IMG/VR virus record: IMGVR_UViG_3300044630_006741 | Origin: an uncultured virus (IMG/VR IMGVR_UViG_3300044630_006741) | Taxonomy: Duplodnaviria > Heunggongvirae > Uroviricota > Caudoviricetes | Direction: 5' to 3' (one strand) | DNA length: 64,000 bases | Shown: piece by piece, positions 31,141 to 55,181 of the stretch | Position numbering within the stretch: position 1 is the first letter of the stretch | Layout: the number at the start of each line of letters is the position of its first letter | Position numbers and translations under genes: made by a program | The notes under the pieces: generated by a model | Database searches by the model: none | What the model saw: the letters and a program-made list of their open reading frames with translations, nothing else | Told to the model about the DNA's origin: nothing

Positions 31141-31157
31141 GCTCTTATATATCGGGA

Positions 31158-39324: not shown

Positions 39325-39440
39325 GGGGCTAGGCTTAGAGGCCTAGCCTCTTTTGTGGACCCAGGAGTCCTAGGGTGTGGCGCAGGTTGGAGTACACTCT
39401 CCCGGGGTTGCTCCGCCCCAGCCCGTCTTGATTGATTGAC
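39325..39440 (-). ncRNA. putative small RNA, copy 1
   Basis: Minus-strand cassette promoter at 39445-39476; conserved core shared with copy 2; no ATG ORF; ends in a hairpin. Confidence 0.55.
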
Positions 39441-39565
39441 TCAGCTAAAGTAAGGTGAAATCCCGTGGGAACCCCGCTGGTCGACTTAAAAAAAGATTCC
39501 AAAATTCTCGGGGTCTTTCCGACATCCTGGTCTATATTTGCCTCATAACCAATCAGCACAAAAAG

Positions 39566-39772
39566 ATGATAGAGGAATTCGAAGTAACGGAGGGCAACCT
39601 TAAAGCAGTAAAGGACACATCTGGCTTTGGGGGAAAGAACAAGTGGAAGCTGGAGATCCTGACACCAGGAGGACGCTGGAGATTAGTCCAGTGGATGAGC
39701 GTGGGCAACATCCAGGAGTTCTTCAAGGCCAATCTGCCCACCTACGAGGAGACAGACAGTTTCAGGAACTAA
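39566..39772 (+). CDS. hypothetical early protein
   Basis: ATG after promoter cassette. Confidence 0.65.
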   Translation: MIEEFEVTEGNLKAVKDTSGFGGKNKWKLEILTPGGRWRLVQWMSVGNIQEFFKANLPTYEETDSFRN

Positions 39773-39836
39773 ATGGGTAACCCTCAAGGGTTCCGGGGTA
39801 CCAGATCCTATATTTGCATCATAACCAATTAACACC

Positions 39837-40142
39837 ATGAGTATGTCAAGCACCACGACACTATTTGATCTAGAGCAACAGGCTGAAACAATCATGCAGA
39901 GCTTCGACTTTGAGAAGGTTCTGAAGCACATGCAAGACACCAACCATCAGTGGTACCAGGGAGGAGGTCGTATGGCGGTGCCAGACATCATGGACCTTAG
40001 GGTCACAGCCCGTGATCTACTCACCAAGGCGATCCATGACAAAAGCGTGGCTTCTAATGTGGGTACTGGTGGCTTTGTTGCCTACAAGTTGCCTTGGGGC
40101 ATGCAACTCACATTCCAAATAGCTTGGGTCTCGGCCTGCTGA
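39837..40142 (+). CDS. hypothetical early protein
   Basis: FDFEKV..M...W...TGGF motif; promoter cassette. Confidence 0.75.
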   Translation: MSMSSTTTLFDLEQQAETIMQSFDFEKVLKHMQDTNHQWYQGGGRMAVPDIMDLRVTARDLLTKAIHDKSVASNVGTGGFVAYKLPWGMQLTFQIAWVSAC

Positions 40143-40198
40143 GGTTCCGTGGAGTCCTGAAGTATATTAGCACTATCAAACAATTAAAACTTACCACC

Positions 40199-40432
40199 AT
40201 GAAGATTTATCTTTTAATCAAATGTTACGAGGATGGCGATAGCTATCAAACATTTAGCGATCTCAAGGAAGCAAAAGAAGTGTTCGAGGGGGAGAAGAAG
40301 AAGGCATGGTATCACACTCTGGCTCTTTGCGAGATCGGACCAAACCAAAGCTTTGGGTTCAACGACTATGGATTTTATGGGGAAGACGTCAATGTCATAG
40401 GGGAGTGGTCCAGAGATTATGGAGATGCGTAA
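40199..40432 (+). CDS. hypothetical early protein
   Basis: ATG after promoter cassette. Confidence 0.65.
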   Translation: MKIYLLIKCYEDGDSYQTFSDLKEAKEVFEGEKKKAWYHTLALCEIGPNQSFGFNDYGFYGEDVNVIGEWSRDYGDA

Positions 40433-40492
40433 CCTGCGGGGATTCCGAGTGATCTTGAAGTACATTTGTCTCAATCAATAAAACATAAGAGC

Positions 40493-40753
40493 ATGGCAGA
40501 AACAAAGCAAGGAGGTCTGGAACTCCTAAGACACCAGAAAGAAGAGGCCGTAGAGGTCCACACCTACACAATCAAGGATGAGGATGGTATTCTCGTCTAC
40601 AAGGAATGGGTCCAAGGCGGAGAAGTCATTGACTCCCTTCTGGAGGGCAAGCATGGAGACACCATCTTCGACGAGGTCCTCATCGAGAGAGTGCAGGAGT
40701 TCGTAGACAACAAGATACAGGAGGGAGCAATTAAACCCTCCTCCTGGTTCTAA
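40493..40753 (+). CDS. hypothetical early protein
   Basis: ATG after promoter cassette; stop codon lies inside the inverted-repeat copy. Confidence 0.65.
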   Translation: MAETKQGGLELLRHQKEEAVEVHTYTIKDEDGILVYKEWVQGGEVIDSLLEGKHGDTIFDEVLIERVQEFVDNKIQEGAIKPSSWF

Positions 40754-40855
40754 AGAGAGCTCGTTGGTTCTGCTCTCGTCTTTGCATAAGAATTTATCTT
40801 TCATAATATAAGGGTTATCTGGTTGTTAATGATAAGGGTCGAGATCTGGGTTAGG
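40738..40855 (-). repeat. 118-bp inverted copy of 44398..44515
   Basis: Reverse complement matches with 2 substitutions. Confidence 0.95.
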
Positions 40856-40920
40856 TATGATGTATAAAAAAGAGGCCGAGGTAACGGAAGTTCCTCGGCC
40901 TTCTCTATTACATTAGCGCC

Positions 40921-41466
40921 ATGGGATTAGATATAACAGCATTTTCAAAACTACAGGTCCTTACTCCAGAGGAGACTAAGGCAGCAGAAAGATCAGTTGG
41001 AGTACAGATAGACCTCGGAGAGAGCGTCTACCACTTCACACAGAGGGATATCAACAGTCCGGATAACTGGATCCGCGATATGGTACCCGGCACCTACTAT
41101 CAGTCGCCCAAGACGGAGGAGTATGACTTCAGAGCGGGCTCGTACAGCGGCTATAGTGCATACCGCAGAATGCTCTCGGAGTGTTTCTTAGGAGCTTTAC
41201 CGGAGGAGGTCTGGGGCAACCAGAGCATCTATAGAGGACAGCCTTTCTACGAGCAGGTTAACTTTTCAGACTGCGAGGGCTTTATCGGACCAGAGTTCTC
41301 AGCCAAGCTGGCCGAGGACTATGAGGAAGGCAGAGACCAGTGGTACGAGTACCTAAAGGAGTCAGGCGAGGGTGCTAATTGGGTAGAAGTCCATATGGCT
41401 AGATATGATAACTGGACCAAGGCTTTTAAGGTAGCCAGCGACGGTGGCTTTGTTTGGTTCCACTAA
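40921..41466 (+). CDS. conserved phage hypothetical protein
   Basis: MGLDI...FRAGSYSGY...FSDCEGFIGP. Confidence 0.75.
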   Translation: MGLDITAFSKLQVLTPEETKAAERSVGVQIDLGESVYHFTQRDINSPDNWIRDMVPGTYYQSPKTEEYDFRAGSYSGYSAYRRMLSECFLGALPEEVWGNQSIYRGQPFYEQVNFSDCEGFIGPEFSAKLAEDYEEGRDQWYEYLKESGEGANWVEVHMARYDNWTKAFKVASDGGFVWFH

Positions 41467-41539
41467 AGATTGGGAAGTTTAGGCTTCCCGTTTTTTTGCT
41501 GCGGGGATTAGAGATATATTAGCTAAACAACCAAACAAC

Positions 41540-42229
41540 ATGCAAGCAGGAACCTACACATTCGATGAACTCTCAGACCGCCTCAAGGAGGAGGCCATAG
41601 AGGCCAACAGAGATATCAACACCTATCATGACTGGCACGAAAACGTGATAGAGGAATTTCATCAGGACTTATCCAAGATGGGTGTTGAAGAAGTGGATGT
41701 GCAGTACTCGGGCTTCTATAGTCAGGGCGATGGAGCTTCCTTCACCGGTAAGGTGGTGGACACGAAGCTATTCCTAACCAAAACTTTGGGCATGACACAG
41801 TATTCGAACGAGGAGTTAGACGAGCTACCCGTAGCCGTGAAAGAGAAAGTAAGAGAGTTCATCGACTCACTAACTATTGCCTTCAATAGAAAGTACGGCA
41901 GCAGATACAGCCACGAGGGAACTTGTCAGGCAGACACTTGGTGCGAGATCCTCCATAACGCAGGCTACGATGAGGAATACCCGGACGGTAAGATCCACTT
42001 CACAAATAGAGTGTTAACTGGAGACCCTATAGTCTTTATGGACCTAGATCACGAGGTGGAAAAGATCGACGGGGCAGCAGAGGAGTGGAGATCGAATCAG
42101 TGCCGAGAACTCTATGACTCCTTAGAGAATGAATACGACTCACTTCAGTCAGACGAGGCTATAGCTGAAACACTAGAGTCGAACGGGACGGAATTTGAAG
42201 TAGACGAAGACGGAGAATTAGTTACATAA
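41540..42229 (+). CDS. acidic phage protein with YSGFYSQGDGASF motif
   Basis: YTFDELS..A, YSGFYSQGDGASF, LENEYD...SDEAI; function not assigned. Confidence 0.7.
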   Translation: MQAGTYTFDELSDRLKEEAIEANRDINTYHDWHENVIEEFHQDLSKMGVEEVDVQYSGFYSQGDGASFTGKVVDTKLFLTKTLGMTQYSNEELDELPVAVKEKVREFIDSLTIAFNRKYGSRYSHEGTCQADTWCEILHNAGYDEEYPDGKIHFTNRVLTGDPIVFMDLDHEVEKIDGAAEEWRSNQCRELYDSLENEYDSLQSDEAIAETLESNGTEFEVDEDGELVT

Positions 42230-42290
42230 ACTTCTTTTTTATAACGGAGATAACAATTAATCTAGCAGAAACAAACAAAGGAACAAAGAG

Positions 42291-42545
42291 ATGAACAAGG
42301 GAAAGAACAACCAGGGCACAGTCACACTCAATGAGGAGACACCCCGCAGCATCGAGCAATTGGTAGACGACTTCTTCACTTCAGGCAAGAAGGTAAGTGA
42401 ATTCGAAAAGGAACTAGGACAGCGAGAGCGTATCATATGGAACGCCAAGAAGGATGAATTCTTATTGGATGAATTCGAAGAATCACCAACCTCATTTGAT
42501 GACGACGAAGAGGAGGATTTCTTAGACGATAGAATTGGCTACTAG
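42291..42545 (+). CDS. acidic hypothetical protein
   Basis: ORF. Confidence 0.6.
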   Translation: MNKGKNNQGTVTLNEETPRSIEQLVDDFFTSGKKVSEFEKELGQRERIIWNAKKDEFLLDEFEESPTSFDDDEEEDFLDDRIGY

Positions 42546-42582
42546 GTCGAAAGAAAAACACCGATCTGCACTATAATAAGAT

Positions 42583-42804
42583 ATGGCAGCAATCAAATGC
42601 ATTTGTAAAACAGATTCAAAACAGAATCATGACGAGGTAAAGAGAAAGATCTATTTTGCCGGAGGTGCTATCACCAGAGAGAAGGTGCACGAAATGTCAA
42701 AAAGCTTCTCCGGCGAATTAGAGTTCGTCTCCGAGGGTGGAACCCTATTCAGGGAATTAAAAGACTCCCCCTTAGTCACGATCATTAATATTGTAAATTT
42801 ATGA
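42583..42804 (+). CDS. hypothetical protein
   Basis: ORF with ATGA overlap to the next gene. Confidence 0.6.
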   Translation: MAAIKCICKTDSKQNHDEVKRKIYFAGGAITREKVHEMSKSFSGELEFVSEGGTLFRELKDSPLVTIINIVNL

Positions 42805-43109
42805 GCGAGAATTTCGAAACAGAAGGTCCAGACGTTGAGGTTATCCTAGAGAAATTCAGAAAGGAGGCTATCCAGAAATTTGTAGAAGCATGCTATGAAG
42901 CATACGAACTTATTAAAACTAGCGGAGTTGATGCGGAAGAGTTTGAAGATAGAGAGGAGATCCGCAAGGCACTTCGCAAGATGCTAGCCCTATTTGAATC
43001 CAGAGAGGAGTACGAGAAGTGCAAGGAGGTGGCTTGGGTGTTAGAGAGTGAGTATCCTGGATTCGAGACAACTCCGGATTACAACTATATTCAAGAGATG
43101 GGCTTATGA
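42801..43109 (+). CDS. hypothetical protein with UVR-like FESREEYEKC motif
   Basis: ORF and motif. Confidence 0.65.
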   Translation: MSENFETEGPDVEVILEKFRKEAIQKFVEACYEAYELIKTSGVDAEEFEDREEIRKALRKMLALFESREEYEKCKEVAWVLESEYPGFETTPDYNYIQEMGL

Positions 43110-43291
43110 CCTCTAGGAAACAGAAAACATCTGAAGGAACCAAAAGCATCGCAGAACTCCGGAGGGAGAATGGATGCAAGAACATGAACTGCAGAGAGTG
43201 CTCGGAGTCAGTGGAAAACGTTGACTACCGGGCAACCTCGGTGCTCTGTTACAAATGTCTAAGCAAATCACTTAATAGAGGAAGAGGATAA
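43106..43291 (+). CDS. small CxxC..CxxC zinc-ribbon protein
   Basis: CREC...CYKC. Confidence 0.5.
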   Translation: MTSRKQKTSEGTKSIAELRRENGCKNMNCRECSESVENVDYRATSVLCYKCLSKSLNRGRG

Positions 43292-43298
43292 ATACTAT

Positions 43299-43511
43299 AT
43301 GCAACAAGATCCTAAGACAAGACAGATATTAGAAAGTGTCTACATCCCAAAGGTGCAGGCCACGGCCAGAAGAGCTTACCTACAGGCTACTGCTCTCATT
43401 AGGGAGCTAGACAGTGCCAAGCTTAACCCTGAGGACTCCTTAGAGATAAAGATGCATATAATAAACATGCTCTCGCTCATCCGAACGACAGAGCCTCAAA
43501 AAAACCAATAA
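43299..43511 (+). CDS. hypothetical protein
   Basis: ORF in packed operon. Confidence 0.6.
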   Translation: MQQDPKTRQILESVYIPKVQATARRAYLQATALIRELDSAKLNPEDSLEIKMHIINMLSLIRTTEPQKNQ

Positions 43512-43515
43512 CCCC

Positions 43516-43722
43516 ATGGCACAGGAAACCAACGACCTAATTCAAAACATCATAGCTGATTACTACCGTCAGAACGGCGGTCTCTTTGGTGAAAAAGATC
43601 TACCAGCTATCCAAAGAGAGCTTAAGCTCATGCACAATATAGACATATCAGATAGAGGACTTGACGCTAGGATTAAAGACTATATGGGTTCACTTTTTTC
43701 CGGAAGAGGAGGAAGAGCATAA
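43516..43722 (+). CDS. hypothetical protein
   Basis: ORF in packed operon. Confidence 0.6.
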   Translation: MAQETNDLIQNIIADYYRQNGGLFGEKDLPAIQRELKLMHNIDISDRGLDARIKDYMGSLFSGRGGRA

Positions 43723-44048
43723 TGACCTATAGAGAGAGATTCGAGGCCTGGTGGTCAGAGTGGAGCTACTTCAAGAAGAAGGAGCTAGCGATCTGGAGAG
43801 AGACGAAGAGAAGAGGTGGACCAGAGCTTAGGATCATGAAGAGGAAGGCGAGGCAGGAGGAGATTAAGGAGCTGAAGGAAGCTTTATACTCTGATCTTGA
43901 AAAAGGATGGATGACAGGAGATTTCAGAATGGAGATAGAGCATGTTGATGCTCTAAGAGAAGGCTTCGCAAAGATTCCGCTGGAAGACCTGGAAAAAATT
44001 TACCTGTATTACAGGAGCATGCAGAACGAAACTATTAGTCGATTCTAG
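43722..44048 (+). CDS. hypothetical protein
   Basis: TAATG overlap. Confidence 0.6.
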   Translation: MTYRERFEAWWSEWSYFKKKELAIWRETKRRGGPELRIMKRKARQEEIKELKEALYSDLEKGWMTGDFRMEIEHVDALREGFAKIPLEDLEKIYLYYRSMQNETISRF

Positions 44049-44082
44049 TTTTCTCTGCGGAAAAATAAAGTATATTTGAATC

Positions 44083-44427
44083 ATGAAATTCATAGGAATA
44101 GCAGATTGCCACGGATTAGAAAGTTTCTTTCCGGCCAGAAAGTTTAATCTCGAAACTCAGAGTTTCGACGAGAACAACGAGATCATTGGATTTATGGTTC
44201 TAAGAGCCAATGCCAATGCCCACAGAAGAGCACTTGTGTTCAGAGTGGAACTAGGTAAAGAGGAAGGACTTGAGGTCATGGAAATGTTCGAGGATGGCGA
44301 ATACCTAGAGGCACTGAACCTACTAAAGCAGTACGCCACTAAGGTGGAGGTAGCAGGAGGTCAAGGCATGAACAGACAGAAGGCCTGGGACAGCATTCCT
44401 AACCCAGATCTCGACCCTTATCGTTAA
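44083..44427 (+). CDS. hypothetical protein
   Basis: GIADCHGLESF...W..IPNPDLDPY; TATATTTG at 44071. Confidence 0.75.
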   Translation: MKFIGIADCHGLESFFPARKFNLETQSFDENNEIIGFMVLRANANAHRRALVFRVELGKEEGLEVMEMFEDGEYLEALNLLKQYATKVEVAGGQGMNRQKAWDSIPNPDLDPYR

Positions 44428-44448
44428 CAACCAGATAACCCTTATATT

Positions 44449-44727
44449 ATGAAAGATAAATTCTTATGCAATGACGAGAGCAGAACCAACGAGCTCTCTT
44501 TAGAACCAGGAGGAGTAACCCTCACGGTAACCACGAGAGACGGCAAGACCGTATCTTATGACAAGATCAAGAATCACTGGGCTTACGCCAAGAAGGTGCT
44601 AAGAGTCCAGGGAGACGATGTGGTTAGCATCATGCTGGGGACCACAGACCTAACCAAAACCCTTAGGGAAGGTCCACCTAAAAATGATCCTCCCAAGAAC
44701 GAGGAAGGAGATAAACTTCCATTTTAA
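44449..44727 (+). CDS. hypothetical protein with SSB-like acidic DxLPF tail
   Basis: Ends EEGDKLPF. Confidence 0.7.
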   Translation: MKDKFLCNDESRTNELSLEPGGVTLTVTTRDGKTVSYDKIKNHWAYAKKVLRVQGDDVVSIMLGTTDLTKTLREGPPKNDPPKNEEGDKLPF

Positions 44728-44801
44728 CCAAAATCAAACTAACCCGGAACTTTCCGGGTTTTTTGCGGTATAATGTTTATATAAACTTAATCCCAAGAGA
44801 A

Positions 44802-45053
44802 ATGATGAGAAATCAAAAAAACAGACCAGCCTCCTACAAGAGGATGAGCTACATGCAAAAGATTGCTAGCATTAACGCAAGACGCAGAATGGGTGATGTG
44901 ACCATCGTGGCACAACGCACTGGATTCGGCACTAGCACAGTTAGCGAAGTGCTTTCTGGCATGTACATGAACAAAAGAATCATTAACAAAGCCTATGATA
45001 TGTCCAGAGGACGTAAGGTTAACCAAAGAGTGATTCAGTCCATGGGCAACTAA
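44802..45053 (+). CDS. basic HTH-like protein
   Basis: DVTIVAQRTGFGTSTVSEVLSG helix-turn-helix pattern. Confidence 0.6.
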   Translation: MMRNQKNRPASYKRMSYMQKIASINARRRMGDVTIVAQRTGFGTSTVSEVLSGMYMNKRIINKAYDMSRGRKVNQRVIQSMGN

Positions 45054-45077
45054 GAGTTAAGATCTAATTCTTAAGAG

Positions 45078-45100
45078 AAGCCGGTTTTTCCGGCTTTTTT
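45078..45100 (+). terminator. intrinsic terminator
   Basis: AAGCCGG-TTTTT-CCGGCTT followed by T-tract. Confidence 0.7.
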
Positions 45101-45124
45101 GTTGCGGAAAAAATAGATACATTT

Positions 45125-45319
45125 ATGGTAATGAAAGAGACATTGAGACCAAGCAAATTCACACAGGCCGAGGATAAATGGGGTTTAGATCTAGTTGCCT
45201 CTGTCTTCAAGGAGGCCAACAATAGGGGTAAGGCTAAAGCCTTCGTATTCTTTGAAGAGTGTGAGAACTATAGAGCTCTAGATTGTCTCAGATTCCTTTT
45301 CGGGTATTCCCGTTACTGA
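45125..45319 (+). CDS. hypothetical protein
   Basis: 64-aa ORF. Confidence 0.5.
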   Translation: MVMKETLRPSKFTQAEDKWGLDLVASVFKEANNRGKAKAFVFFEECENYRALDCLRFLFGYSRY

Positions 45320-45501
45320 TTCGCTCTCTTCTTCAAGAGGAAGTATAACCCAAAAAAGCAAACCGATATGCCATAGAAGATTGCGTCTGTGACGAAGTAG
45401 GAACCTGTCCATTTTGTCACAAGAGCAAAGGCGGCATCGAACCCCAGGGGATTGAAGAATGTTGCAAGAATCAGGCTTATTGTAGCTGCTCTGTTTTTCA
45501 C
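45313..45501 (-). CDS. small two-helix membrane protein
   Basis: LATFFNPLGFDA..F..V...TGSY...IFY..S..FFGLY; start uncertain (GTG). Confidence 0.55.
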   Translation of the reverse strand: MKNRAATISLILATFFNPLGFDAAFALVTKWTGSYFVTDAIFYGISVCFFGLYFLLKKRANQ

Positions 45502-45700
45502 TATCGGGGTCTGCGTCCATAAATGGATTTTTTTAGAGAAATTCTCAGAAAGTCTGAAATTTCTTGAAAACTTTGCTTTCGATTTATATATAACTTCCGT
45601 GATTAAAAATCGGCTATCTTCAGTCTCTCTACGTGGATTTGCCTGATATTAGCGAATGTCAAACAGGACACACTGATCTTTGACATACTGGAAAAAACAT

Positions 45701-45774
45701 GCCTCCGTAGCTCAGCTGGATAGAGCAACGCACTTCTAATGCGTAGGTCACACGTTCGAATCGTGTCGGGGGTA
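45701..45774 (+). tRNA. tRNA-Arg(TCT)
   Basis: Cloverleaf; loop CTTCTAA; GTTCGAATC T-loop. Confidence 0.9.
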
Positions 45775-45779
45775 CAATC

Positions 45780-45861
45780 GGGAGATTCGCATAGCGGCAA
45801 TTGCAAGGGACTGTAAATCCCTCGCCTTCGGGCTTCAGTGGTTCGAGTCCACTATCTCCCA
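45780..45861 (+). tRNA. tRNA-Tyr(GTA)
   Basis: GGGAGAT/ATCTCCC stem; loop CTGTAAA; long variable arm. Confidence 0.9.
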
Positions 45862-45915
45862 CTATATTTATGTGTTAACTCTTAAGACCTGAATTCAATA
45901 TCGGATATATAAATT

Positions 45916-46458
45916 ATGGAAACATTTATCTACACTCTATCCGACTCATCAGGTATTAAATATGTCGGGAAATCAAACGATCCACTGGATCGCCTAAAAA
46001 GCCATCTGAAAGACTGCAAGAAAAAAAGAACGCGGAAAGAAAGATGGATACACGGAATGCTGGAAAGAAAAGAATTACCTGTCGTAGAGATTATAGATTA
46101 TGTTCCAAATAACATGTGGTCTTTTTATGAATCATACTGGATCAGTCAATTGAAAGCATGGGGATTCGATCTTGTTAATGGGACTGAAGGTGGAGAGGGA
46201 AGCAACGGATTTAAGGGTAAAACACACACCAAAGAAACTATAGAGAAATGCAGATCAGCTAGGTACAAAAGGGAATCAGAGACAAACTTAACTGGTTCAA
46301 ATAATGGAAACAGCAAGCTCGATGAATCTAAGGTTATTGAGATTAAAAAAATGTTAGAGCAAAAAATCAGTCATACAAAAATAGCTAGCATTTTCAACGT
46401 TTCAAAGGTAACGATAACACATATCTCAACGGGTAAAAAATGGAAGCATGTAAAATAA
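45916..46458 (+). CDS. free-standing GIY-YIG homing endonuclease
   Basis: FIYTL..IKYVGKS...RL..H; E.YWI; N.TEGGEG; NUMOD-like GKTHTKET; C-terminal HTH. Confidence 0.85.
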   Translation: METFIYTLSDSSGIKYVGKSNDPLDRLKSHLKDCKKKRTRKERWIHGMLERKELPVVEIIDYVPNNMWSFYESYWISQLKAWGFDLVNGTEGGEGSNGFKGKTHTKETIEKCRSARYKRESETNLTGSNNGNSKLDESKVIEIKKMLEQKISHTKIASIFNVSKVTITHISTGKKWKHVK

Positions 46459-46463
46459 TATAT

Positions 46464-46537
46464 TGTGGGTTGGAGAAGATGGCCATCTCGCGAGCCTCAT
46501 AAGCTCGAGGTCGGGGGTTCGAATCCCTCACCCGCTA
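46464..46537 (+). tRNA. tRNA-Met(CAT), initiator-like
   Basis: Loop CTCATAA; unpaired 1:72 position. Confidence 0.8.
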
Positions 46538-46543
46538 CTAAAT

Positions 46544-46661
46544 AGTCAGGTGGCAAATTGGTAAAGCGCCTCAGGCATGGGGAGATACGGTTCGAATCCG
46601 TTGTTAGGAGGCATCCGAAGCAAGTATGGTACTATTGCAGGTTCGATCCCTGCCCTGGCTA
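46544..46661 (+). ncRNA. tRNA-scaffold RNA 1
   Basis: AGTCAGG/CCTGGCT acceptor stem, D-like arm and T-arm; expanded middle with a second TTCGAAT hairpin. Confidence 0.65.
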
Positions 46662-46740
46662 CTAAAAAACATTTGAAACCCTTCGGGGTTATCACGAGAA
46701 GAAAATCTATATTTGCATCATAACCAATAAATCAATAGAT

Positions 46741-46989
46741 ATGGAAAATGAAGTAACAAAAGTATTCTCTGATATGACCGACTTAGAATTAGCTCAAGCG
46801 GTTAGAGAAATGAAAGAAGATGGACCACAAGGATTTGTCCGTACAGAAGGCGTTGTTAGAGAACGATGCAAAATGGTTAACGAGATAGTTGGTGGTAATG
46901 TTTATGCCCACTTGATGATGACTCAGATGTCTATCTACAAGGAAGCGGCAGAGCGTTTCACTCCAAACTTGGATCTCTTAAATAAATAG
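46741..46989 (+). CDS. hypothetical early protein
   Basis: Promoter cassette at 46678-46727. Confidence 0.7.
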   Translation: MENEVTKVFSDMTDLELAQAVREMKEDGPQGFVRTEGVVRERCKMVNEIVGGNVYAHLMMTQMSIYKEAAERFTPNLDLLNK

Positions 46990-46995
46990 TAACAT

Positions 46996-47151
46996 AGTCA
47001 GGTGGCGGAATTGGTAGACGCTGTACTAAGAAAAAACCGATACTACAAGAGTTGAAAGGTTTGAAACCTTTAGCGATGACGGTAGATTGACAGAAAATGT
47101 CATTCAGGAAGGCTTCAAGTACATATACAGGTTCGAATCCTGTCCTGATTA
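46996..47151 (+). ncRNA. tRNA-scaffold RNA 2
   Basis: AGTCAGGTGGCGGAATTGGTAGACGC...ACAGGTTCGAATCCTGTCCTGATTA with ~100-nt middle closed by TGTACT/AGTACA. Confidence 0.7.
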
Positions 47152-47206
47152 CTAAAGTACACATCACGCTACACATAAGAACAGCGTCCCGGGGTGTGTC
47201 TTTTGC

Positions 47207-47328
47207 GTGTTGTTCCCTTGAGAAAGGAATTAGTAATTATAGATGCTGACCTCTCAAATAGAGAGTTAAGTATGAGGGTGATGATCATCTATAGTTAATG
47301 ACTCTACAACACAGAGGTTCTCAACCTC
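47207..47328 (+). ncRNA. structured RNA with complementary hairpin loops
   Basis: GTGTTGT/ACAACAC and AATTATAGATG/CATCTATAGTT stems; loops TTGAGAA and TTCTCAA. Confidence 0.55.
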
Positions 47329-47333
47329 AAATT

Positions 47334-47408
47334 GCGCCTGTAGCTCAGCTGGTCAGTAGCAACGGTCTCATAAACCGTAGGTCCTTGGTTCGAACCCAAG
47401 CAGGCGCA
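47334..47408 (+). tRNA. tRNA with CAT anticodon (Met or Ile2)
   Basis: GCGCCTG/CAGGCGC stem; loop CTCATAA. Confidence 0.85.
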
Positions 47409-47412
47409 CTAT

Positions 47413-47490
47413 GCCCCTTTGGCGGAATTGGTAGACGCGCTACTTTTAGGCAGTAGTCTTCGGGTGTAGGTTCGAGTCCTACAGGGGGTA
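47413..47490 (+). tRNA. tRNA-Leu(TAG)
   Basis: GGCGGAATTGGTAGACGC D-arm; CTACT-TTTAGGC-AGTAG anticodon arm. Confidence 0.85.
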
Positions 47491-47510
47491 CAAGTCTCAG
47501 CCTTTTTTAT

Positions 47511-47598
47511 GGAGATGTGTCCGAGTGGTTGAAGGAGCACGCCTGGAAAGTGTGTATACCTCAAAAGGGTATCGGGAGTTCGAATCTCTCCATCTCCG
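47511..47598 (+). tRNA. tRNA-Ser(GGA)
   Basis: GGAGATG/CATCTCC stem; loop CTGGAAA; long variable arm; G73. Confidence 0.9.
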
Positions 47599-47677
47599 CT
47601 ATTTTTTCCAGTATCAACAGAGTCTCTCAGAGGATCAGCCTTATATTTGCCTCATAACAAATAAACAACCAATCGTT

Positions 47678-48369: not shown

Positions 48370-48414
48370 ATTGACCTTCGTTTTCTCCCCGTGGTTATGT
48401 ATTACTCTTGAGGT

Positions 48415-48732: not shown

Positions 48733-48788
48733 CCATTTTTTTACAACGGGACTAGGCCATATATTTACATCATAATAAATAACCAATC

Positions 48789-49166
48789 ATGGAAAACACA
48801 AAAACAAAAACAGAAGTCTTAGCGGGAGTGCAAGCTTCTATCAGTTCAATCTTCAGCAAAGAAGATGTTGTTGGAATCATTAAGTCTATCAAGGAGGGTG
48901 AGGGAGGCAAGGGCATCACCAAAAGTCAATTGATAGATGCCTTGGAGTCAATTGACCTGGATGACTTCACATCGAAGGATCTCGAGTTTGATCACTCGGA
49001 ACTTGAGATCACCTACGACACAGACGACAACGGAAACGGAGGCGTCATCGTCACAGCAGAGGTCGACGAGAGCTCGGTAGAGGGTGCAGTCAGCGTAACA
49101 CTCACCTTAATTGACGCCAGCGGCTTGGCTCAGGAGATCCTGGACAACTTGGGCTCTGAGGACTAA
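48789..49166 (+). CDS. acidic hypothetical protein
   Basis: SSIFSKEDV N-terminal motif; promoter-like cassette upstream. Confidence 0.7.
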   Translation: MENTKTKTEVLAGVQASISSIFSKEDVVGIIKSIKEGEGGKGITKSQLIDALESIDLDDFTSKDLEFDHSELEITYDTDDNGNGGVIVTAEVDESSVEGAVSVTLTLIDASGLAQEILDNLGSED

Positions 49167-49229
49167 AAACCCAGAAAAAGACTGGTCGGGGAGCGGAAGT
49201 TCCTCGGCCTTCTTTTCTATATTTGCATC

Positions 49230-49634
49230 ATGACCAACCAATATAAATACTTCCAACCTAAGAGCTCTGATGATATCAAATGCTCTAAAGACTGCATGAT
49301 CCGTTCGGTGGTGATAGCCACAGGACGTCCCTACAACGAGGTGTACCAGCTAATGAAAGCCAAAGGCTGGAGGACCAAGAGGTCCAGCGCTGACAAAGAC
49401 TGGGAGAAGCAGATCACCGACACTCTAAAGGAGTTAGGCTTCAAGGCCACCAGACACTCCTTCCCTGGCATCAAGGGACAACCCCGCAGAACAGCAATGA
49501 CCATGCCCTCCACCGGCACCTGGATCCTGCGTGTGTCAAAACACGTAGCATGCCTGAAGGATGGAGTGCTACTCGACACCTGGGACTGCAGATCATCCTG
49601 CGTCTACTTCGCCTGGGAAATTCATCCTATCTAG
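49230..49634 (+). CDS. conserved phage protein with Cys/His/Asp motif
   Basis: DCMIRS...HVACLKDG.L.DTWDC. Confidence 0.7.
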   Translation: MTNQYKYFQPKSSDDIKCSKDCMIRSVVIATGRPYNEVYQLMKAKGWRTKRSSADKDWEKQITDTLKELGFKATRHSFPGIKGQPRRTAMTMPSTGTWILRVSKHVACLKDGVLLDTWDCRSSCVYFAWEIHPI

Positions 49635-49693
49635 CAGGATCTTCTCGGGGCTAGACCCTATATTTGCTTCATAACCAATCAACACATAAGAAC

Positions 49694-49984
49694 ATGAGCA
49701 ATAATGAAAAAATCGAGCAGCTTCTCGTCACTCTAGTTGGCAATAGCAAAACCCAGATTAATGTATGTGACCTTCTTGTTGACTACATTAGCTCTTTGAG
49801 CGAAGTTGAACAAATAGAATTGATCCAAAGAATCCCTGAAGAGGTGGGCGAGGTACACGAGTGTCATAGTTGCAGCCACACCACTTTAGACGAAAGACTT
49901 ATTTTTGATGATGGTATGTCATGTGAGCTTTGTAGCTCATCCTACCACTGGAATCACGAAGGACAAAGCGGTTACCTACCTTGA
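49694..49984 (+). CDS. CxxC-containing early protein
   Basis: ATG after cassette; CHSC..CELC. Confidence 0.65.
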   Translation: MSNNEKIEQLLVTLVGNSKTQINVCDLLVDYISSLSEVEQIELIQRIPEEVGEVHECHSCSHTTLDERLIFDDGMSCELCSSSYHWNHEGQSGYLP

Positions 49985-50058
49985 AAAAGATAAGACCTTC
50001 GGGGTTACACTGGGGCTAGATCCTATATTTGCAGCATAACCAATTAACACATAAGAGC

Positions 50059-50286
50059 ATGAGCGAGAAAAAACTCTATTGCGTGGTCGTTACAGACCCT
50101 GCTGATGTACTAGGCTGCTTAGAAAGCCCTATCATCTTCCACATCAAAACAGACGAAGCTGCAGCTGCTGAAGCCAAGGTCATTGAAGAACTCACGTCGG
50201 AGGACTATGGCTATGACATTGAGGATGTGACAGGCTTGGACATCTTTGTCTTCGAGGTCACTGAGTTGGACATTTTAGAGGGATAA
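50059..50286 (+). CDS. acidic early protein
   Basis: ATG after cassette. Confidence 0.65.
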   Translation: MSEKKLYCVVVTDPADVLGCLESPIIFHIKTDEAAAAEAKVIEELTSEDYGYDIEDVTGLDIFVFEVTELDILEG

Positions 50287-50360
50287 CTTTTCAAGAACCC
50301 TCGGGGCTTCCCGGTGGTTCATTCCTATATTTGCTTCATAACCAATCAACATATAAGAAC

Positions 50361-50660
50361 ATGGCAAAAAAAGAAGAGATCATTTCAAAGACAGGCTTCC
50401 TCATCTACAACGATGGCTACAACAACAGTGGCAAGAGCTGGTCACTAACAGGCTCTCCCAAAGGGGTATACCGCTTCCGAGACTATGAATGTGCCTACGA
50501 TATACAGGATCACCTAAAGGAGAAGGTGGGCAGTCCAGAGGGCATTAAATGGGACTCCGAGTACTGCCAGATGTGGGCCTACTTCCCAGACAAGAGATCG
50601 GCAGTCAACTACCTTAAGAAGATCGAGAAGTACTTCGAGAAGGCAGTAAGCATCCTCTAA
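50361..50660 (+). CDS. hypothetical early protein
   Basis: ATG after cassette. Confidence 0.7.
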   Translation: MAKKEEIISKTGFLIYNDGYNNSGKSWSLTGSPKGVYRFRDYECAYDIQDHLKEKVGSPEGIKWDSEYCQMWAYFPDKRSAVNYLKKIEKYFEKAVSIL

Positions 50661-50735
50661 AAAAGTCAGCCGGGGAGCAGGTTCTTCCCGGCTTTCTCTC
50701 TTACATTTGCATCACAACCAATACTCATAAAGAAC

Positions 50736-51167
50736 ATGTCAACACGCTCAAGAATAGGAATGATAAACGAGGACGGATCTATCACCTCCGTCTACTGTCA
50801 CTGGGACGGCTATCCAAGCCACAACGGTTTAATTCTAGAGAAGAACTACCAGGACCCCGAGAAGATCAAGACGCTAATGTCTTTAGGCGATCTTTCCTCA
50901 CTAGGCAAAAAATTGATCCCTGAGGGAAACGCTGTGCACACCTTCGATGACCCTGCGGATGGCGTATGTGTGTTCTATGGCAGGGACCGAAAAGAAATCG
51001 GCACCAATTGTAAGGTCTCAGCAAACATGAAGGAATTCATTGAAATGTCAGACTGGTGTGACTACTGCTACATCTTTGAAGCCGGGGTGTGGTTCGTAAT
51101 AGAGATGCACCATGGGAATAAGCCGGTGAAGCTCTCTGAATACTTTGCAAAAGATCCTAGGGAATAA
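50736..51167 (+). CDS. conserved phage protein
   Basis: MSTRSRIG...SVYCHWDGYP...LGDLSSL...YGRDR. Confidence 0.8.
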   Translation: MSTRSRIGMINEDGSITSVYCHWDGYPSHNGLILEKNYQDPEKIKTLMSLGDLSSLGKKLIPEGNAVHTFDDPADGVCVFYGRDRKEIGTNCKVSANMKEFIEMSDWCDYCYIFEAGVWFVIEMHHGNKPVKLSEYFAKDPRE

Positions 51168-51241
51168 TCACAAACCATTTTTTTTCTACGGTGATTTCAA
51201 TTACTTTAGCTGCATAACCAAAAGATAAACTCTATAGCAAA

Positions 51242-52261
51242 ATGGCAAGAAAAGAAACAACAGGACAGAGAGCGCCAATGAGCCCAGAAGCTCGTCAGCG
51301 CATCGCAGAGGCTGTACGCCTAGCAGCAGAACGCAAACGTCAGGAGATGGGTTTACCCCCTGCACAGCCAACCGCACAAAGACCGCCGGCTAACCCAGTC
51401 TTCGTGGATCGAGCAATCGAGTTGGTGAAGATGCAGGACCAACACTTCGCAGATGACTTATTCGTACCCATGCCAACTGGCAAGGCTATTGACACCTTGT
51501 TCACCAACGACGGGGGTTTGCCTAAAGCATGTAACTACATGGTGATTGGAGACCCGGGTGTCGGTAAATCTACGGTCACTTTAGATATGCTATCTGATCT
51601 GGCTCGTGTCGGTAAAAAGGTCTTATTCATCTCCGCGGAAATGACGAGGATCGACCTTTGGGGCTACGTAAAAAGATATCCAAAGTTCGGAGAAGTTCCG
51701 GTACTTTTCTTAGGAGAGTATTTGGACGCTAACCCAAAGCAAGTAGTCGAGGACTCATTAAAGCCCGGCTATGACATTGTCTTGATCGACTCCTTCGCCG
51801 AGGTACAAGAGGCAGTCAAAGAGTCAAATTACATGACAACAGGACAGTCAGAGAAGTGGTTAATTGATCTTATGATCGTCAACAATATGGGTCAGAACGA
51901 CACAGGAACCAACACCACATTCCTGGCCATTCAGCAGGTAACCAAAGGAGGCGTGTTCGTAGGGTCCAACAAATTGAAGCACAACACCACCGGTATGATG
52001 GAACTCCGCATTGATGCAGATACCGGATCATCTTTTGTCATCTTTACAAAGAACCGCAGAGGCATCGTTAATCGTAGACTTTTCTTCTCCTTGGCAGAGT
52101 CCGGAGACGTTGTATACGACACACGCCGCTTAAACTCCGACAATGAGGCGAGAGAAGCCCTAAGTGCCGAAAAGAAGCAGATGGAAGAGGAGGAAAATGC
52201 ATTTGACACCTTGTTCGGAGACGGCATGGTTGAACGCTACACACCACGTGACGATTTTTAG
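51242..52261 (+). CDS. RecA-superfamily (RadA/Sms-like) ATPase
   Basis: Walker A GDPGVGKST; FISAEM; Walker B LIDS; QVTKGG.F.G...LKH; KNR. Confidence 0.8.
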   Translation: MARKETTGQRAPMSPEARQRIAEAVRLAAERKRQEMGLPPAQPTAQRPPANPVFVDRAIELVKMQDQHFADDLFVPMPTGKAIDTLFTNDGGLPKACNYMVIGDPGVGKSTVTLDMLSDLARVGKKVLFISAEMTRIDLWGYVKRYPKFGEVPVLFLGEYLDANPKQVVEDSLKPGYDIVLIDSFAEVQEAVKESNYMTTGQSEKWLIDLMIVNNMGQNDTGTNTTFLAIQQVTKGGVFVGSNKLKHNTTGMMELRIDADTGSSFVIFTKNRRGIVNRRLFFSLAESGDVVYDTRRLNSDNEAREALSAEKKQMEEEENAFDTLFGDGMVERYTPRDDF

Positions 52262-52366
52262 GAAGCTATAGAGGAGGATCGGGCTCTAAAAAAGATTACA
52301 AACCTTCTCTTTTATCCCGGTCCTTTATCTTACTTTAGCACTATCAATCAAAACAACATAAAGCTT

Positions 52367-53464
52367 ATGAAAAAGTTTGAAACAATCTCCCAGGACATTT
52401 GGGACGCAAAGGCCAAGGAGGCCTTAGAAAAACAACCTCTCCGTAAGGAGATATCGCTAAGGGAGGTACAGCTGGTTAACAGCGACACCTTATCGATCTC
52501 AGGTAAGCCCGTCCGACTGACAGTGCAGGCCTTCAAAGACCTCTGTAAGATCGTTGGTTTGCCTATCGGCTTCGACAAGACCTTCACCGGCACATTCGGC
52601 GAGGGAGCACGCCAACAATTGGTCAATAAGCTAAAGGTCGTAGCAGCTTCGAAGGGTAACACCTCAGTGAGCTTGGTCTTCTCGCCCTTTACCAAAGAGA
52701 TCGTAAGTATCCAGAGGGATCCACGTGAAATTGTTAGCAACAAGACCTTCTTGGACACCACTACTCGTATCGTGGATCGCTACGGACTTGAGATCAATAG
52801 CTTCTCAGTTAACGAGGATGGTCGTTTAGCAATCAACGCTTCTTCACCAAAAAATGAGTTTGGTATCAAGGGGTTGCCTAACGAGGATCACTACGGGGGT
52901 GTGAGTTTCTTGAACAGCCCAGATGGAGGCTTCGAGGTTACACCGTTCCTTTACCGCTTGGTCTGCGCCAACGGCATGATAGGAAAAAGCTTCGAGGAAA
53001 GCATGAAGCTTGGGTCAATGGATCCGGTTTCCGTAGAAACTATGTGGAACCAGCTAAATGAATTAGCACTCCGCAACTTCCGACCTATCGGGTTTGAAAA
53101 TCGTATCCGCAAGGCGATGAACACGCCGGCTTCACTAGCCGAGCTAGGAGATGCTCACTACTCAATACTTAGCCTTAGTGACGTTCGCCTCAGAGAAGCC
53201 GAAGCTTGGGTGCCTTATCACGAGACAAAGGACGTGTTCCACCGAGCTGAGATTGACACAGTAACGATGACGCCAGGACAGCGTAAGTGCGCCAAAACTG
53301 GAACATCGATCTGGGACTTAGTGAATGGTATTACTCACTTCGCTACACACGACAACGGCTTTAAAATCGAGGACTACGATCGTCGTCGTCTTCAGGTCGA
53401 GGCTTCTAAGATCCTATCTAAGAAGACCTACGATATGGAAAACATCGTAGCAAGTCCGTACTAA
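52367..53464 (+). CDS. DUF932-like phage protein
   Basis: NS.DG...PFLYRLVCANGM; S.WDLVNGIT.FATH. Confidence 0.6.
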   Translation: MKKFETISQDIWDAKAKEALEKQPLRKEISLREVQLVNSDTLSISGKPVRLTVQAFKDLCKIVGLPIGFDKTFTGTFGEGARQQLVNKLKVVAASKGNTSVSLVFSPFTKEIVSIQRDPREIVSNKTFLDTTTRIVDRYGLEINSFSVNEDGRLAINASSPKNEFGIKGLPNEDHYGGVSFLNSPDGGFEVTPFLYRLVCANGMIGKSFEESMKLGSMDPVSVETMWNQLNELALRNFRPIGFENRIRKAMNTPASLAELGDAHYSILSLSDVRLREAEAWVPYHETKDVFHRAEIDTVTMTPGQRKCAKTGTSIWDLVNGITHFATHDNGFKIEDYDRRRLQVEASKILSKKTYDMENIVASPY

Positions 53465-53621
53465 TATTGTTTGGTTGATTGGTTGGATCTGGGGCTCTTG
53501 AGCCCCATTTCCTATTGGGGCCTTACCACCCAGGGCCGCGTGACACCCGCGAAATAACGCTCGTACGAGCGGGGTTCCTACGTACGCGTATAGTATATTT
53601 GTATCATAACCAATAAGCACT

Positions 53622-53879
53622 ATGGATAAGGTATATGTTGTAATGAACAGATCAGAGGTCGAGAAAGACATCTGTATTATCTCTACTGATCTAATTAAGG
53701 CTAAGTCCTCATTTGATACCTACTCTGCCAACTGGGGCATGACAGTTCTGGCTGAGGTGGAGCTGGACAAGGACTTCGGTATGGATGATGACTTCCTCTT
53801 CTGGGGTGGCACCGTCCTGTATGAGTTCCACAATGAGCCAGACGAGGATGACTCGGAGTACGAGTTTAGTTTCGTATAA
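53622..53879 (+). CDS. acidic early protein
   Basis: Promoter cassette; weak resemblance to 40199..40432. Confidence 0.65.
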   Translation: MDKVYVVMNRSEVEKDICIISTDLIKAKSSFDTYSANWGMTVLAEVELDKDFGMDDDFLFWGGTVLYEFHNEPDEDDSEYEFSFV

Positions 53880-54179
53880 ACCTTCTGGGGTTCTGCAGGA
53901 AGTAATTCTATATTTGCACCATAACCAATCACAACTATGTACTACTTCCAACCACTAGATCCAGAGGTCTTCGGAGACCGCTACCAAGAAGAACAAGAAC
54001 TCATGCGTAACATGGCCAGAGAAGCCTTCCTGCGTGAGTCAAAGGAGCCGCAATGGGAATACGATAACGGGTACTAAACAAAGCCCATGCAAGGGGACGA
54101 GGAGGCTATAATTAAATAGCCAACCCTCGGGTTCCCTACGCTAAAAGGAATTAACATTGCACCATAACACATAAGCAAT

Positions 54180-54374
54180 ATGATTAAGAAGATCACCGAC
54201 TTCATACGGTCCCTTAGACAGACCGAGCCAGCAGGGGAAGCGATAGACCTCACCTACGGCAAGCTCAAGGTACGAAGTACCATCGGGAATAATGCGGAGT
54301 TTGACTTCAACGAGCAGTCCCGCCATGTACACCGGGAAATGTGTCGGATCAAGGGGGTTAAGCCTAAGGCATAA
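54180..54374 (+). CDS. hypothetical protein
   Basis: ORF after cassette-like sequence. Confidence 0.55.
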   Translation: MIKKITDFIRSLRQTEPAGEAIDLTYGKLKVRSTIGNNAEFDFNEQSRHVHREMCRIKGVKPKA

Positions 54375-54448
54375 AAAAGTTTCAAAACCATTTTTTTCCT
54401 GAGGGGGTTGTTCCTATATTTGCATCATAACCAATAACAATTAAGCAA

Positions 54449-54928
54449 ATGAACAAGCCACTTAACCCCCAGAACTTCCCTCACATTTTCTTCGCAGGAC
54501 GTACCCGCGTAACTCTTAAGAACAACGCTAAGGACACGCACGTTCGCTTGAAGATCAAGGAGCAGAAGGAGCGCAAGAACGGCCAATTGGTAGGCACCGG
54601 CCGCTTCTTCGTCTACACCTCTATCCTCAACGACGGCGACGCAGGATGGGACTTCGCTGCTACCTTCTTCGCTGACAGCAAGAACTACCGCTTGGGCCAG
54701 AAGCACTCTCGAGGCTCACAGGTCGATCGCATCATGAATTTCGTTTCTAACGCACTTAAGAACCCTGCACTATTCCGCGAGAAAGGTGCTAGCGTATACC
54801 ACGAAGGACGCTGCTGCCGCTGCGCTATGCCTCTTACGCATCCAGACTCAATCGTCTTAGGCGTTGGTCCAGACTGCTTAAAGCAAATGCCAGAGGGCTT
54901 CATGCTAGATCTCATCCCAGCCATCTAA
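54449..54928 (+). CDS. DUF6011-like zinc-binding phage protein
   Basis: HEGRCCRCAMPLTHPDSI..GVGPDC. Confidence 0.7.
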   Translation: MNKPLNPQNFPHIFFAGRTRVTLKNNAKDTHVRLKIKEQKERKNGQLVGTGRFFVYTSILNDGDAGWDFAATFFADSKNYRLGQKHSRGSQVDRIMNFVSNALKNPALFREKGASVYHEGRCCRCAMPLTHPDSIVLGVGPDCLKQMPEGFMLDLIPAI

Positions 54929-54944
54929 GAGCTGGGGTGCTAAT

Positions 54945-55055
54945 AAAAAGAGCCTTAACCGGCTCTTTTCCTGCGGATAGGGGTCTAGGGTGTGGCGCAG
55001 GTTGGAGTACACTCTCCCGGGTTGTTAGCCCACGCCCGTCGGTTGGTTGATCGAC
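54945..55055 (-). ncRNA. putative small RNA, copy 2
   Basis: Minus-strand promoter at 55060-55091; same core as copy 1; terminator AAAAGAGCC-GGTTAA-GGCTCTTTTT. Confidence 0.55.
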
Positions 55056-55181
55056 AGAGCTAAAGTAAGGCAGGACCGCTCGGAACCTCCGAAGGAGGGA
55101 GGGGAAAAAAGAATCACGGATCCTCTGGATCTCTCCGTCATTCGACCCTATATTTGCTACATAACCAATCAGCATACCAAT

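Follow-up and report, generated by a model that had tools for sequence, protein, structure and literature searches.

Phage-encoded small RNAs are known as a kind; to our knowledge they are few, and most of them are lineage-specific. Species 1 and 2 RNAs of T4 are stable phage small RNAs of unknown role that are encoded in tRNA regions. Here, we analyzed a stretch of 64,000 nucleotides (nt), referred to as the window, which is part of an uncultured large phage (IMG/VR record IMGVR_UViG_3300044630_006741, Caudoviricetes) and in which most open reading frames (ORFs) belong to no known family. Its minus strand carries two copies, A and B, of what is very probably a genuine small RNA gene family with a common architecture of an invariant GGG, a variable hairpin (P2), and an 18-nt core. 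We tentatively favor, with somewhat less than even confidence, a trans-acting structured small RNA whose core would act as the module that recognizes a conserved protein, be it a host factor or the product of a neighboring DUF932 gene. The family is found in phages, most of them with Bacteroidota-style promoters. The RNA family, its breadth, its invariant core, and its DUF932 neighborhood appear to be undescribed in Rfam 15 and in the literature searched; queries with core sequence strings, phage-RNA topics, and the Pfam names of neighbors retrieved no description of the motif or of such an RNA in the parts of the sources that were accessible.

Like the T4 RNAs, the RNA described here is small and non-coding, has its own promoter or processing, and belongs to an early or tRNA-rich phage region; a tRNA cluster at 45.7-47.6 kb of the window lies between the two copies. 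It differs from the T4 RNAs in lacking any sequence or Rfam relation to them, and in belonging to a family that spans many unrelated phages with an invariant 18-mer. Protein-sponge small RNAs (sRNAs) of the CsrB/RsmZ type present a short motif in a hairpin, sometimes several times per RNA, and rumen-type members of the phage family likewise carry two; however, the phage motif differs from A(N)GGA, most members contain it only once, and the partner protein is only a candidate.

The duplicated RNA unit and its promoters

A first-pass annotation, made from the nucleotide sequence alone, had described two copies 15.6 kb apart, each with GACGGGC, a variable hairpin, an identical block, and a terminal hairpin, and all of these were present as described. 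The identical 37-nt block (CCCGGGAGAG..CCCTAG) occurred exactly twice in the window, both times on the minus strand (39370-39406 and 54985-55021), and none was expected by chance (100 shuffles). Along the minus strand, each copy consists of a promoter of the cassette type with TTACTTTAGC at its end, a small 5' hairpin whose loop is CA-rich, GACGGGC (39427-39421 in copy A, 55040-55034 in copy B), a copy-specific hairpin, the 37-nt block, and a terminal hairpin. The copy-specific hairpin reads CUGGGG-CGGAGCAA-CCCCGG in copy A and is shorter in copy B (UGGG-CUAACAA-CCCG). The features of the two copies are as follows.

39430..39487, minus strand: copy A promoter cassette, 58-nt match with the -7-type box TACTTTAG at 39445-39452; best minus-strand matrix score in the window (13.5 bits)
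39425..39440, minus strand: copy A 5' hairpin P1, GUC-AAUCAAUCAA-GAC with CA-rich loop, from sequence and folding; analogous 5' hairpins in other lineages
39381..39427, minus strand: copy A core module with GGG (39424-39422), P2 (39421-39402), and the invariant 18-mer GAGAGUGUACUCCAACCU (39401-39384); covariance model 60.5 bits, E 9e-14
39370..39383, minus strand: copy A lineage-specific 3' extension GCGCCACACCCUAG, containing an ACAC on which the first-pass annotation relied; common only to window-like and some X-type loci
39327..39348, minus strand: copy A terminal hairpin GGCUAGGC-CUCUAA-GCCUAGCC, read from the sequence; T-run on the plus-strand side only
55045..55102, minus strand: copy B promoter cassette, box TACTTTAG at 55060-55067; second-best minus-strand matrix score (6.4 bits)
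55038..55055, minus strand: copy B 5' hairpin P1, GUCG-AUCAACCAAC-CGAC, from sequence and folding
54996..55040, minus strand: copy B core module with GGG (55037-55035), P2 (55034-55017), and the 18-mer (55016-54999); covariance model 61.5 bits, E 5e-14
54985..54998, minus strand: copy B lineage-specific extension GCGCCACACCCUAG, from sequence and block identity
54945..54969, minus strand: copy B bidirectional terminator AAAAGAGCC-GGUUAA-GGCUCUUUUU, read from the sequence and folded

As the T-run of the copy A hairpin lies on the plus side only, this hairpin is a canonical terminator for the upstream plus-strand gene and not for the RNA. A terminator scan listed neither of the two terminal hairpins; that of copy B was probably missed because its stem extension consumes the T-run. 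The proteins flanking copy A are not paralogues of those flanking copy B, and therefore only the RNA unit is duplicated. A search of the window with covariance model R1 gave no third copy. With regard to the earlier statement that no ATG ORF is present, minus-strand ORFs are listed over both regions (39335-39559, starting with GTG, and 54912-55175, starting with ATG); they begin upstream of the promoter box, and the shared core falls into different frames in the two copies because the variable hairpins differ in length by 2 nt. A reading of the core as a peptide (GUG-UAC-UCC..) was rejected, as natural variants turn GUG into GUA and the frames of the two copies are unlike.

From 38.5 kb on, small gene cassettes follow one another on the plus strand, each of them behind a conserved unit of approximately 58 nt with the consensus ..CCnTCGGGGTTnTCnCGGGA-N6-CCTATATTTGCnnCATAACCAAT. 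A 58-nt weight matrix was trained on 21 plus-strand cassettes only and scored on the whole window. Its two best minus-strand scores were exactly those of copies A and B, which bears out the cassette promoter that had been proposed for each of them; only three minus-strand positions scored above 0 bits, versus 41 plus-strand positions above 10 bits, all at 38.5-63.9 kb. The box TACTTTAG is present at 8 sites in the window versus 2.8 expected, and the plus-strand DUF932-like gene at 52367 has the same TTACTTTAGC-N4-TCAATCAA promoter variant. Box TATATTTG matches TAnnTTTG, which we take to be the Bacteroidota -7 element, and because of this resemblance the host may be guessed to belong to the Bacteroidota. 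Across the lineages of the family, the boxes are mostly of the TAnnTT(T/A)(G/A) kind (TACTTTAG, TACTTTTA, TATCTTTG, TATATTTG, TACCTTTG); one jumbo-phage lineage has the promoter unit CCAGTACTGGCCCGTTAATATAC instead, also ahead of a neighboring protein gene. In each phage, the RNA is thus driven by the ordinary promoter type of that phage. From this promoter evidence, we infer that the RNA is likely expressed. Three metatranscriptome runs had small word shares of the region (0.05-0.10), as unstranded contigs. Taken together, the promoter matrix, the covarying variable hairpin, and the strand-specific G-U pairs described below support independent, promoter-driven, non-coding units on the minus strand, as had been claimed.

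Approximately 41 copies of the 58-nt cassette are found at 38498-63908 on the plus strand, before nearly every small gene, and none at 1-38 kb. They comprise a UUCG-type hairpin, CCCGGG, CTATATTTGC or TTATATTAGC, and then a CATAACCAAT leader; the box variants are regionally clustered, with TTTGC mostly at 38-54 kb and TTAGC at 55-62 kb. The conserved promoter-like unit CCAGTACTGGCCCGTTAATATAC stands before the RNA and neighboring genes in L051, L081, and L110, and in G154 around 160.9 kb, and suggests a phage-specific transcription system in this jumbo-phage lineage.

The RNA family and its fold

A scan of viral contigs for a 16-nt piece of the core gave 12 loci. Two belong to G001, the record nearest to the window (47 kb, estimated 17% complete, 24% of sampled words in common), in which both RNA copies are present with 95% and 85% identity, and one (L007) looks like a chance match in coding sequence; the remaining loci lie on very different contigs of 14 kb to 366 kb and have the same part order. 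In metagenome contigs, the 18-mer GAGAGTGTACTCCAACCT was found at 78 loci in 67 distinct contexts. Model R1 scored 74 of them at ≥25.8 bits, and the other four (L053, L067, L074, L109; ≤20 bits) were chance-like; several viral contigs also contain the sub-core GAGAGUGUACUCCAACCU, which recurred in 74 of these loci. The family layout is promoter, 5' hairpin, invariant GGG, variable hairpin P2, 18-nt core, and terminator. This order is kept with unrelated promoters and terminators, and the 5' part, promoter, and terminator set at least eight lineages apart. In most members, the core is directly followed by a hairpin and a long U-run. Both window copies fall under the family definition, with GGG, a hairpin with the covarying Y-R closing pair, and then GAGAGURUACUCCAACCU.

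The window has two copies, the complete genomes G153 (326 kb) and G154 (366 kb) have a single one each, and rumen-type contigs have up to 3-4. The 18-mer of G153 and G154 is single-copy and identical to that of the window, despite only 4/153 and 3/153 ORFs, respectively, in common with it (tblastn, E 1e-5); thus, the RNA core is far better conserved than the proteomes. A constraint of such degree over 18 nt is usually seen only in RNAs that touch core cellular machinery. An identical core in otherwise unrelated large phages suggests, as far as sequence comparison goes, the recognition of something highly conserved. Natural core variants (UAGAG.., UCGAGUAUACUCC, AGUAUA, AGUACA) keep GAG-URYA-CUC. 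Some rumen-type RNAs have two motif (hairpin) copies 33-34 nt apart, the first often without the AACCU tail. In L083 (956-1093), two family members, one of them with the loop variant AGUAUA, lie on opposite strands, face each other, and have one bidirectional A/U hairpin terminator in common.

No Rfam 15 family was found on the RNA strand at the element (window at the gathering threshold; 20 loci of 10 lineages at E ≤ 10 or 1). The eight matches on the window at the gathering threshold were all tRNAs, and the sole overlap was a sub-threshold match to RF01093 (20.2 versus 35 bits) on the opposite strand, on the terminator hairpin. A blastn search of copy A versus 50,697 phage records gave no match, and tblastn of a 510-amino-acid (aa) window protein a single match of 24% identity in an uncultured 635-kb phage; a similar cultured phage was found by neither search.

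The fold was analyzed with alignment A3, which comprises 35 distinct sequences trimmed from 3 bases before GGG to 3 after the core and aligned with MAFFT with both ends anchored; it replaced a right-anchored MAFFT alignment that was useless for structure. GGG, which is not part of any search pattern, was invariant in 35/35 sequences. The closing pair of P2 was C-G in 23 and U-A in 12 sequences and in no case unpaired, and all five P2 pairs had changes on both sides. The P2 cells were paired in 83.6% versus 77.1% in shuffles, at a covariation score of 0.201 versus 0.113, and neither value was reached in any of 500 shuffles. When the 3' partner of P2 was shifted by one column, pairing fell to 52-59%. 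G-U pairs made up 15 cells in three of the P2 pairs; on the other strand these would be A-C mismatches, and therefore the structure belongs to the minus-strand RNA. In an independent parse, a hairpin stood directly at the core in 32 of 34 distinct sequences; 24 different stems were seen, and the hairpin reached at least 5 bp in 18 of the 34, compared with 12% of shuffles; the frame GGG-Y...R-GAGAG was present in 52 of 53 instances.

Beyond P2, pairing of GGG with CCU (P0) and of GAG with CUC around a UGUA loop (P3) would give a three-way junction. Two observations lend this proposal indirect support. The variants UAGAGUGUACUCC and UCGAGUAUACUCC destroy the GGAG/CUCC register that had been proposed earlier and keep GAG-URUA-CUC. 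In L004 and the Z lineage, the GGG strand is extended (GGGUUG(GA)/(UC)CAACCU) with full complementarity to UCCAACCU.

Candidate partners and rival explanations

In the explanation that we tentatively prefer, each copy would be a self-contained gene for a non-coding RNA of approximately 90-115 nt on the minus strand, transcribed from the same promoter type as the neighboring plus-strand cassettes. The RNA would fold into a 5' hairpin, the invariant GGG abutting the variable hairpin P2, and then the invariant GAGAGUGUACUCCAACCU, with its small GAG-UGUA-CUC hairpin and the CCU back-pairing to GGG at the junction. The work would be done by the hairpin and tail, whose sequence is invariant and which would form the recognition module for a single, highly conserved partner. 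This partner is most likely a protein, namely a host factor or the neighboring DUF932 protein. With a protein as partner, the RNA would act in trans as decoy, sponge, or subunit of a ribonucleoprotein during host takeover. The gene family, its promoter, hairpin P2, and the conservation are shown by the data, and the P0 and P3 pairings, the kind of partner, and the role of the RNA are inferred. A protein-binding module is favored because the invariance spans stem, loop, and tail, because some members carry two hairpins, because no extended RNA target was found in the genomes examined (an extended complement of the core was absent from the phages and host rRNA examined), and because the phages have hardly any proteins in common. 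Should a host factor be the partner, the RNA would mark a new place at which phages attack Bacteroidota cells.

The DUF932-like gene is a candidate for the partner by its neighborhood. The distances between DUF932 genes and the RNA are listed below.

52367..53464, plus strand: DUF932-like protein gene of the window (365 aa), 1.5 kb from copy B
G153: 0.9 kb, with the RNA upstream on the same strand
G154: 1.1 kb, likewise with the RNA upstream on the same strand
G001: 2.2 kb
L103 (V lineage): 0.45 kb downstream

The gene (PF06067) is single-copy in G153, G154, G155, and G001. It lies close to the RNA (0.45-2.3 kb) in four unrelated lineages and not in two others. The window protein matches phrog_1362 (E 4.7e-8); it has no Protein Data Bank relative by sequence, and the AlphaFold model (predicted local distance difference test 84.6) gave nothing at E ≤ 0.001 in Foldseek. 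We know of no function for the family DUF932, which is widespread on plasmids, integrative and conjugative elements, and prophages; a functional study was not found in the accessible parts of the literature. The narrower proposal that RNA and DUF932 are two halves of a hitherto unrecognized RNA-protein module in very different large Bacteroidota phages, with the invariant hairpin and tail as DUF932 binding site and a role in host takeover or counter-defense, is doubtful. If true, such a module would provide the first functional handle on this widespread family and, with DUF932 as the partner, its first function. The covariance model, the structural hypothesis, and the candidate partner make a concrete experiment possible.

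Several observations weigh against the preferred explanation. The P0 and P3 columns never vary, their 3' halves being fixed by the search pattern, and a fourth P0 pair is formed in only 15/35 sequences; the stability of single-sequence folds did not significantly exceed that of shuffles (z -1.1 and -2.1). The terminal hairpin of copy A is not followed by a U-tract. In the metatranscriptomes, copy A is covered by one unstranded contig, whose depth resembles that of gene contigs, and the core of copy B by none. As for DUF932, the Pfam match of the window protein (E 4.3e-4, 20.6 bits) is below the 23-bit cut-off. In the rumen-type G155, the gene is 62 kb away from the RNA, and three fragmentary records that contain the RNA (38.6, 14, and 30 kb) lack it. 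The best VIA-align score of the model (Z 5.8, to an oligonucleotide-binding (OB)-like part of RPA/Teb1 and, with the middle part, frataxin-like) is below the reliable level.

A base-pairing regulator, in which the 18-mer is a single-stranded seed for a short conserved site in host or phage RNA (mRNA start region, rRNA, or tRNA segment), is possible and rather unlikely. The layout of hairpins, a conserved unstructured stretch, and a terminator is typical of trans-acting sRNAs, and GUGUACUCC can pair with the universal 16S segment GGAGUACGC. However, the best duplex with this segment (-21.3 kcal/mol) is within the range of shuffled motifs (mean -18, standard deviation 1.9, minimum -22.3). In the window and G154, complementary 11-mers occur as single coincidences of coding (VGVQ codons), and the genes that contain them are not homologous; the counts of complementary k-mers in three phage genomes are at shuffle level. 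At ≤2 mismatches, 151 Bacteroidota genomes gave no recurrent site, with 18 matches in 16 genomes versus 11 in the reversed control. Invariance over the whole 18 nt including the stem, and duplicated hairpins without the tail, fit protein recognition better.

Improbable, in our view, is a cis-acting element of transcription or replication, such as a nut- or put-like antitermination site, an insulator of convergent transcription between cassettes, or an origin-proximal priming transcript. As with nutL/nutR (boxB) of lambda or putL/putR of HK022, two copies per genome each stand just past a promoter and contain a sequence-specific small hairpin. Lacking a U-tract, copy A may let transcription run on. 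In addition, arrays of perfect DnaA boxes adjoin the RNA in the V and Z lineages, which are AT-rich (11 in L086, 6 in L103, 5 in L071), and iteron-like repeats come after rumen-type RNAs. The phage RNA differs from nut and put in running into strong terminators, with a hairpin and long U-run straight after most family members; no N-like protein was identified, and the orientation to the neighbors differs among lineages and is often useless for read-through, which in the window would yield antisense RNA only. Moreover, the window has no perfect DnaA box and 16 one-mismatch sites versus 17 in the control.

It is very improbable that the three-way junction forms the basis of a self-contained RNA with catalytic or ligand-binding activity, i.e. 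a small ribozyme or aptamer. Invariant junction nucleotides around a freely varying helix are also found in small ribozymes and riboswitch aptamers, and the core is kept across phages with almost no proteins in common; but no Rfam ribozyme or riboswitch matched even at E ≤ 10, most contexts have no downstream gene under control, and nothing indicates a cleavage site.

The first-pass annotation had instead proposed an early anti-defense decoy that mimics a type III antitoxin RNA or a CRISPR repeat, with an invariant pseudoknot core in which the GUGU loop of a GGAG/CUCC hairpin pairs with ACAC. We consider this highly improbable. The GUGU/ACAC strands can pair in 66/68 cells of 17 distinct lineage members, with 0 compensatory changes; the only changes seen were two G-C to G-U and two mismatches. 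The ACAC lies within the 14-nt extension GCGCCACACCCUAG, which is found only in the window lineage and part of the sister lineage and is missing in the Y, Z, V, U, and rumen lineages, in L004, and in L009; in the other lineages, CCU-RC runs straight into the terminator. The 3' half of the 37-mer (AACCTGCGCCACACCC) matched 32 loci in viral contigs, of which only the two of G001 are real. Among these viral matches, the GCGCCACAC part was found only in G001; among the metagenome loci, it is present in window-like ones and in some of the X type. Across the family, only 18 of the 37 nt are common, and the pseudoknot is not a family feature.

Like type III antitoxin RNAs and the pseudo-ToxI of phages, the element is a phage-borne structured RNA proposed as decoy, and in a few rumen-type relatives the motif recurs with a period of 33-34 nt. 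In contrast to these systems, the window has two dispersed single units instead of a tandem array of repeats of approximately 34-36 nt, and neither an adjacent endoribonuclease toxin nor a host counterpart. ToxN/AbiQ-type or other defense families were absent from the flanking proteins (Pfam, PHROG, PADLOC); NCBIfam and PADLOC gave nothing relevant on the neighbor proteins, the only PADLOC matches being weak ones on an AAA ATPase (51242-52261; mad8, E 2.5e-7; PDC-S37, E 0.0046). Solitary repeat mimics acting as RNA anti-CRISPRs resemble the element in being a solitary block of approximately 37 nt with a small hairpin on a phage. They differ in that no CRISPR repeat or host sequence with the core was found in 185,579 species genomes, which were scanned for the exact 20-nt degenerate core, so that diverged repeats would escape; the only two matches were single and of the coding chance type. 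None of the matches in the 151 Bacteroidota genomes lay in an array, and those in Prevotella contigs look coding. The host-genome scans were thus at background, which speaks against mimicry of a CRISPR repeat or antitoxin as well as against a long target in the host. An anti-defense role is possible only through the gene context: besides DUF932, the RNA has as neighbors SprT-like proteins (G153, L100), a DUF1281_C protein, and an orphan D12 methylase, which we take to be gene kinds of early, establishment, or anti-defense regions of mobile elements.

Least credible is a 5S rRNA mimic, resembling loop E and helix IV, that would serve as decoy for a ribosomal protein that binds 5S rRNA: the flanks of the variable hairpin are alike and in the same order in two Bacteroidota 5S genes (GAUGGUA-CUGC..(hairpin)..-GGGAGAGUA versus GAYGGG-CUG..(hairpin)..-GGGAGAGUR in the phage, i.e. 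GAYGG.. and GGGAGAGU), but this likeness of two short strings may be chance, no lineage matched RF00001 at E ≤ 10, the 5' strand is shorter by one base, the sequences diverge after GAGAGU, and the duplicated hairpins of rumen-type RNAs have no GAYGGG partner. The two 5S genes lie at 1304-1415 of L142 and 4477-4588 of L143; one of them ends in CCAACCUU.

Other neighboring genes and remaining features of the window

A second protein family adjoins the RNA.

54449..54928, plus strand: DUF6011 protein gene (159 aa), convergent with copy B; Pfam E 1.9e-11

Proteins of this family (approximately 160 aa) adjoin the RNA in 24 loci and in two arrangements, convergent in the copy-B type and co-oriented downstream with an own promoter in the sister lineage. 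Nothing was found in the literature on DUF6011. A phrog_1987 protein of uncertain role is encoded in the window (50736-51167) and in G153 (184846-185238), 3-4 kb from the RNA in both; with 40% identity, it is one of only four window-G153 homologues.

The DnaA-box arrays beside the RNA were seen in L086 (+328..+461 relative to the RNA core), L071, L103, and L063, with up to 11 perfect boxes in 135 nt and with iteron-like repeats. These contigs are AT-rich (23-27% GC), and the arrays could be an origin or a DnaA-titrating site.

Recognizable genes of the window encode an Mtd_N/collagen tail fiber, an SLT lysin, a glutamine-synthetase-like protein (13361-14407), a sigma-70 region 4 (extracytoplasmic-function-like) factor (18699-19307), an Fpg glycosylase, a GIY-YIG endonuclease, and eleven tandem leucine-rich-repeat (LRR) paralogues. 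The tail-fiber-like gene (3220-4416) combines an Mtd_N domain with a collagen triple-helix repeat and contains DNA repeats with a period of 9 nt (3621-4106). Diversity-generating retroelements target Mtd proteins, but a reverse transcriptase was not seen in the window. The eleven LRR genes (26810-35355, minus strand; Pfam LRR_4) have a 63-nt (21-aa) periodicity, and this block has the opposite orientation and a higher GC content than the part at 1-24 kb. Eight tRNA genes form two clusters (45701-47599 and 60168-60411), the first with the GIY-YIG homing-endonuclease-like gene (45916-46458) inside. RNA-library contigs at these clusters contain many joints between tRNA-like pieces, which probably derive from tRNAs of other organisms.

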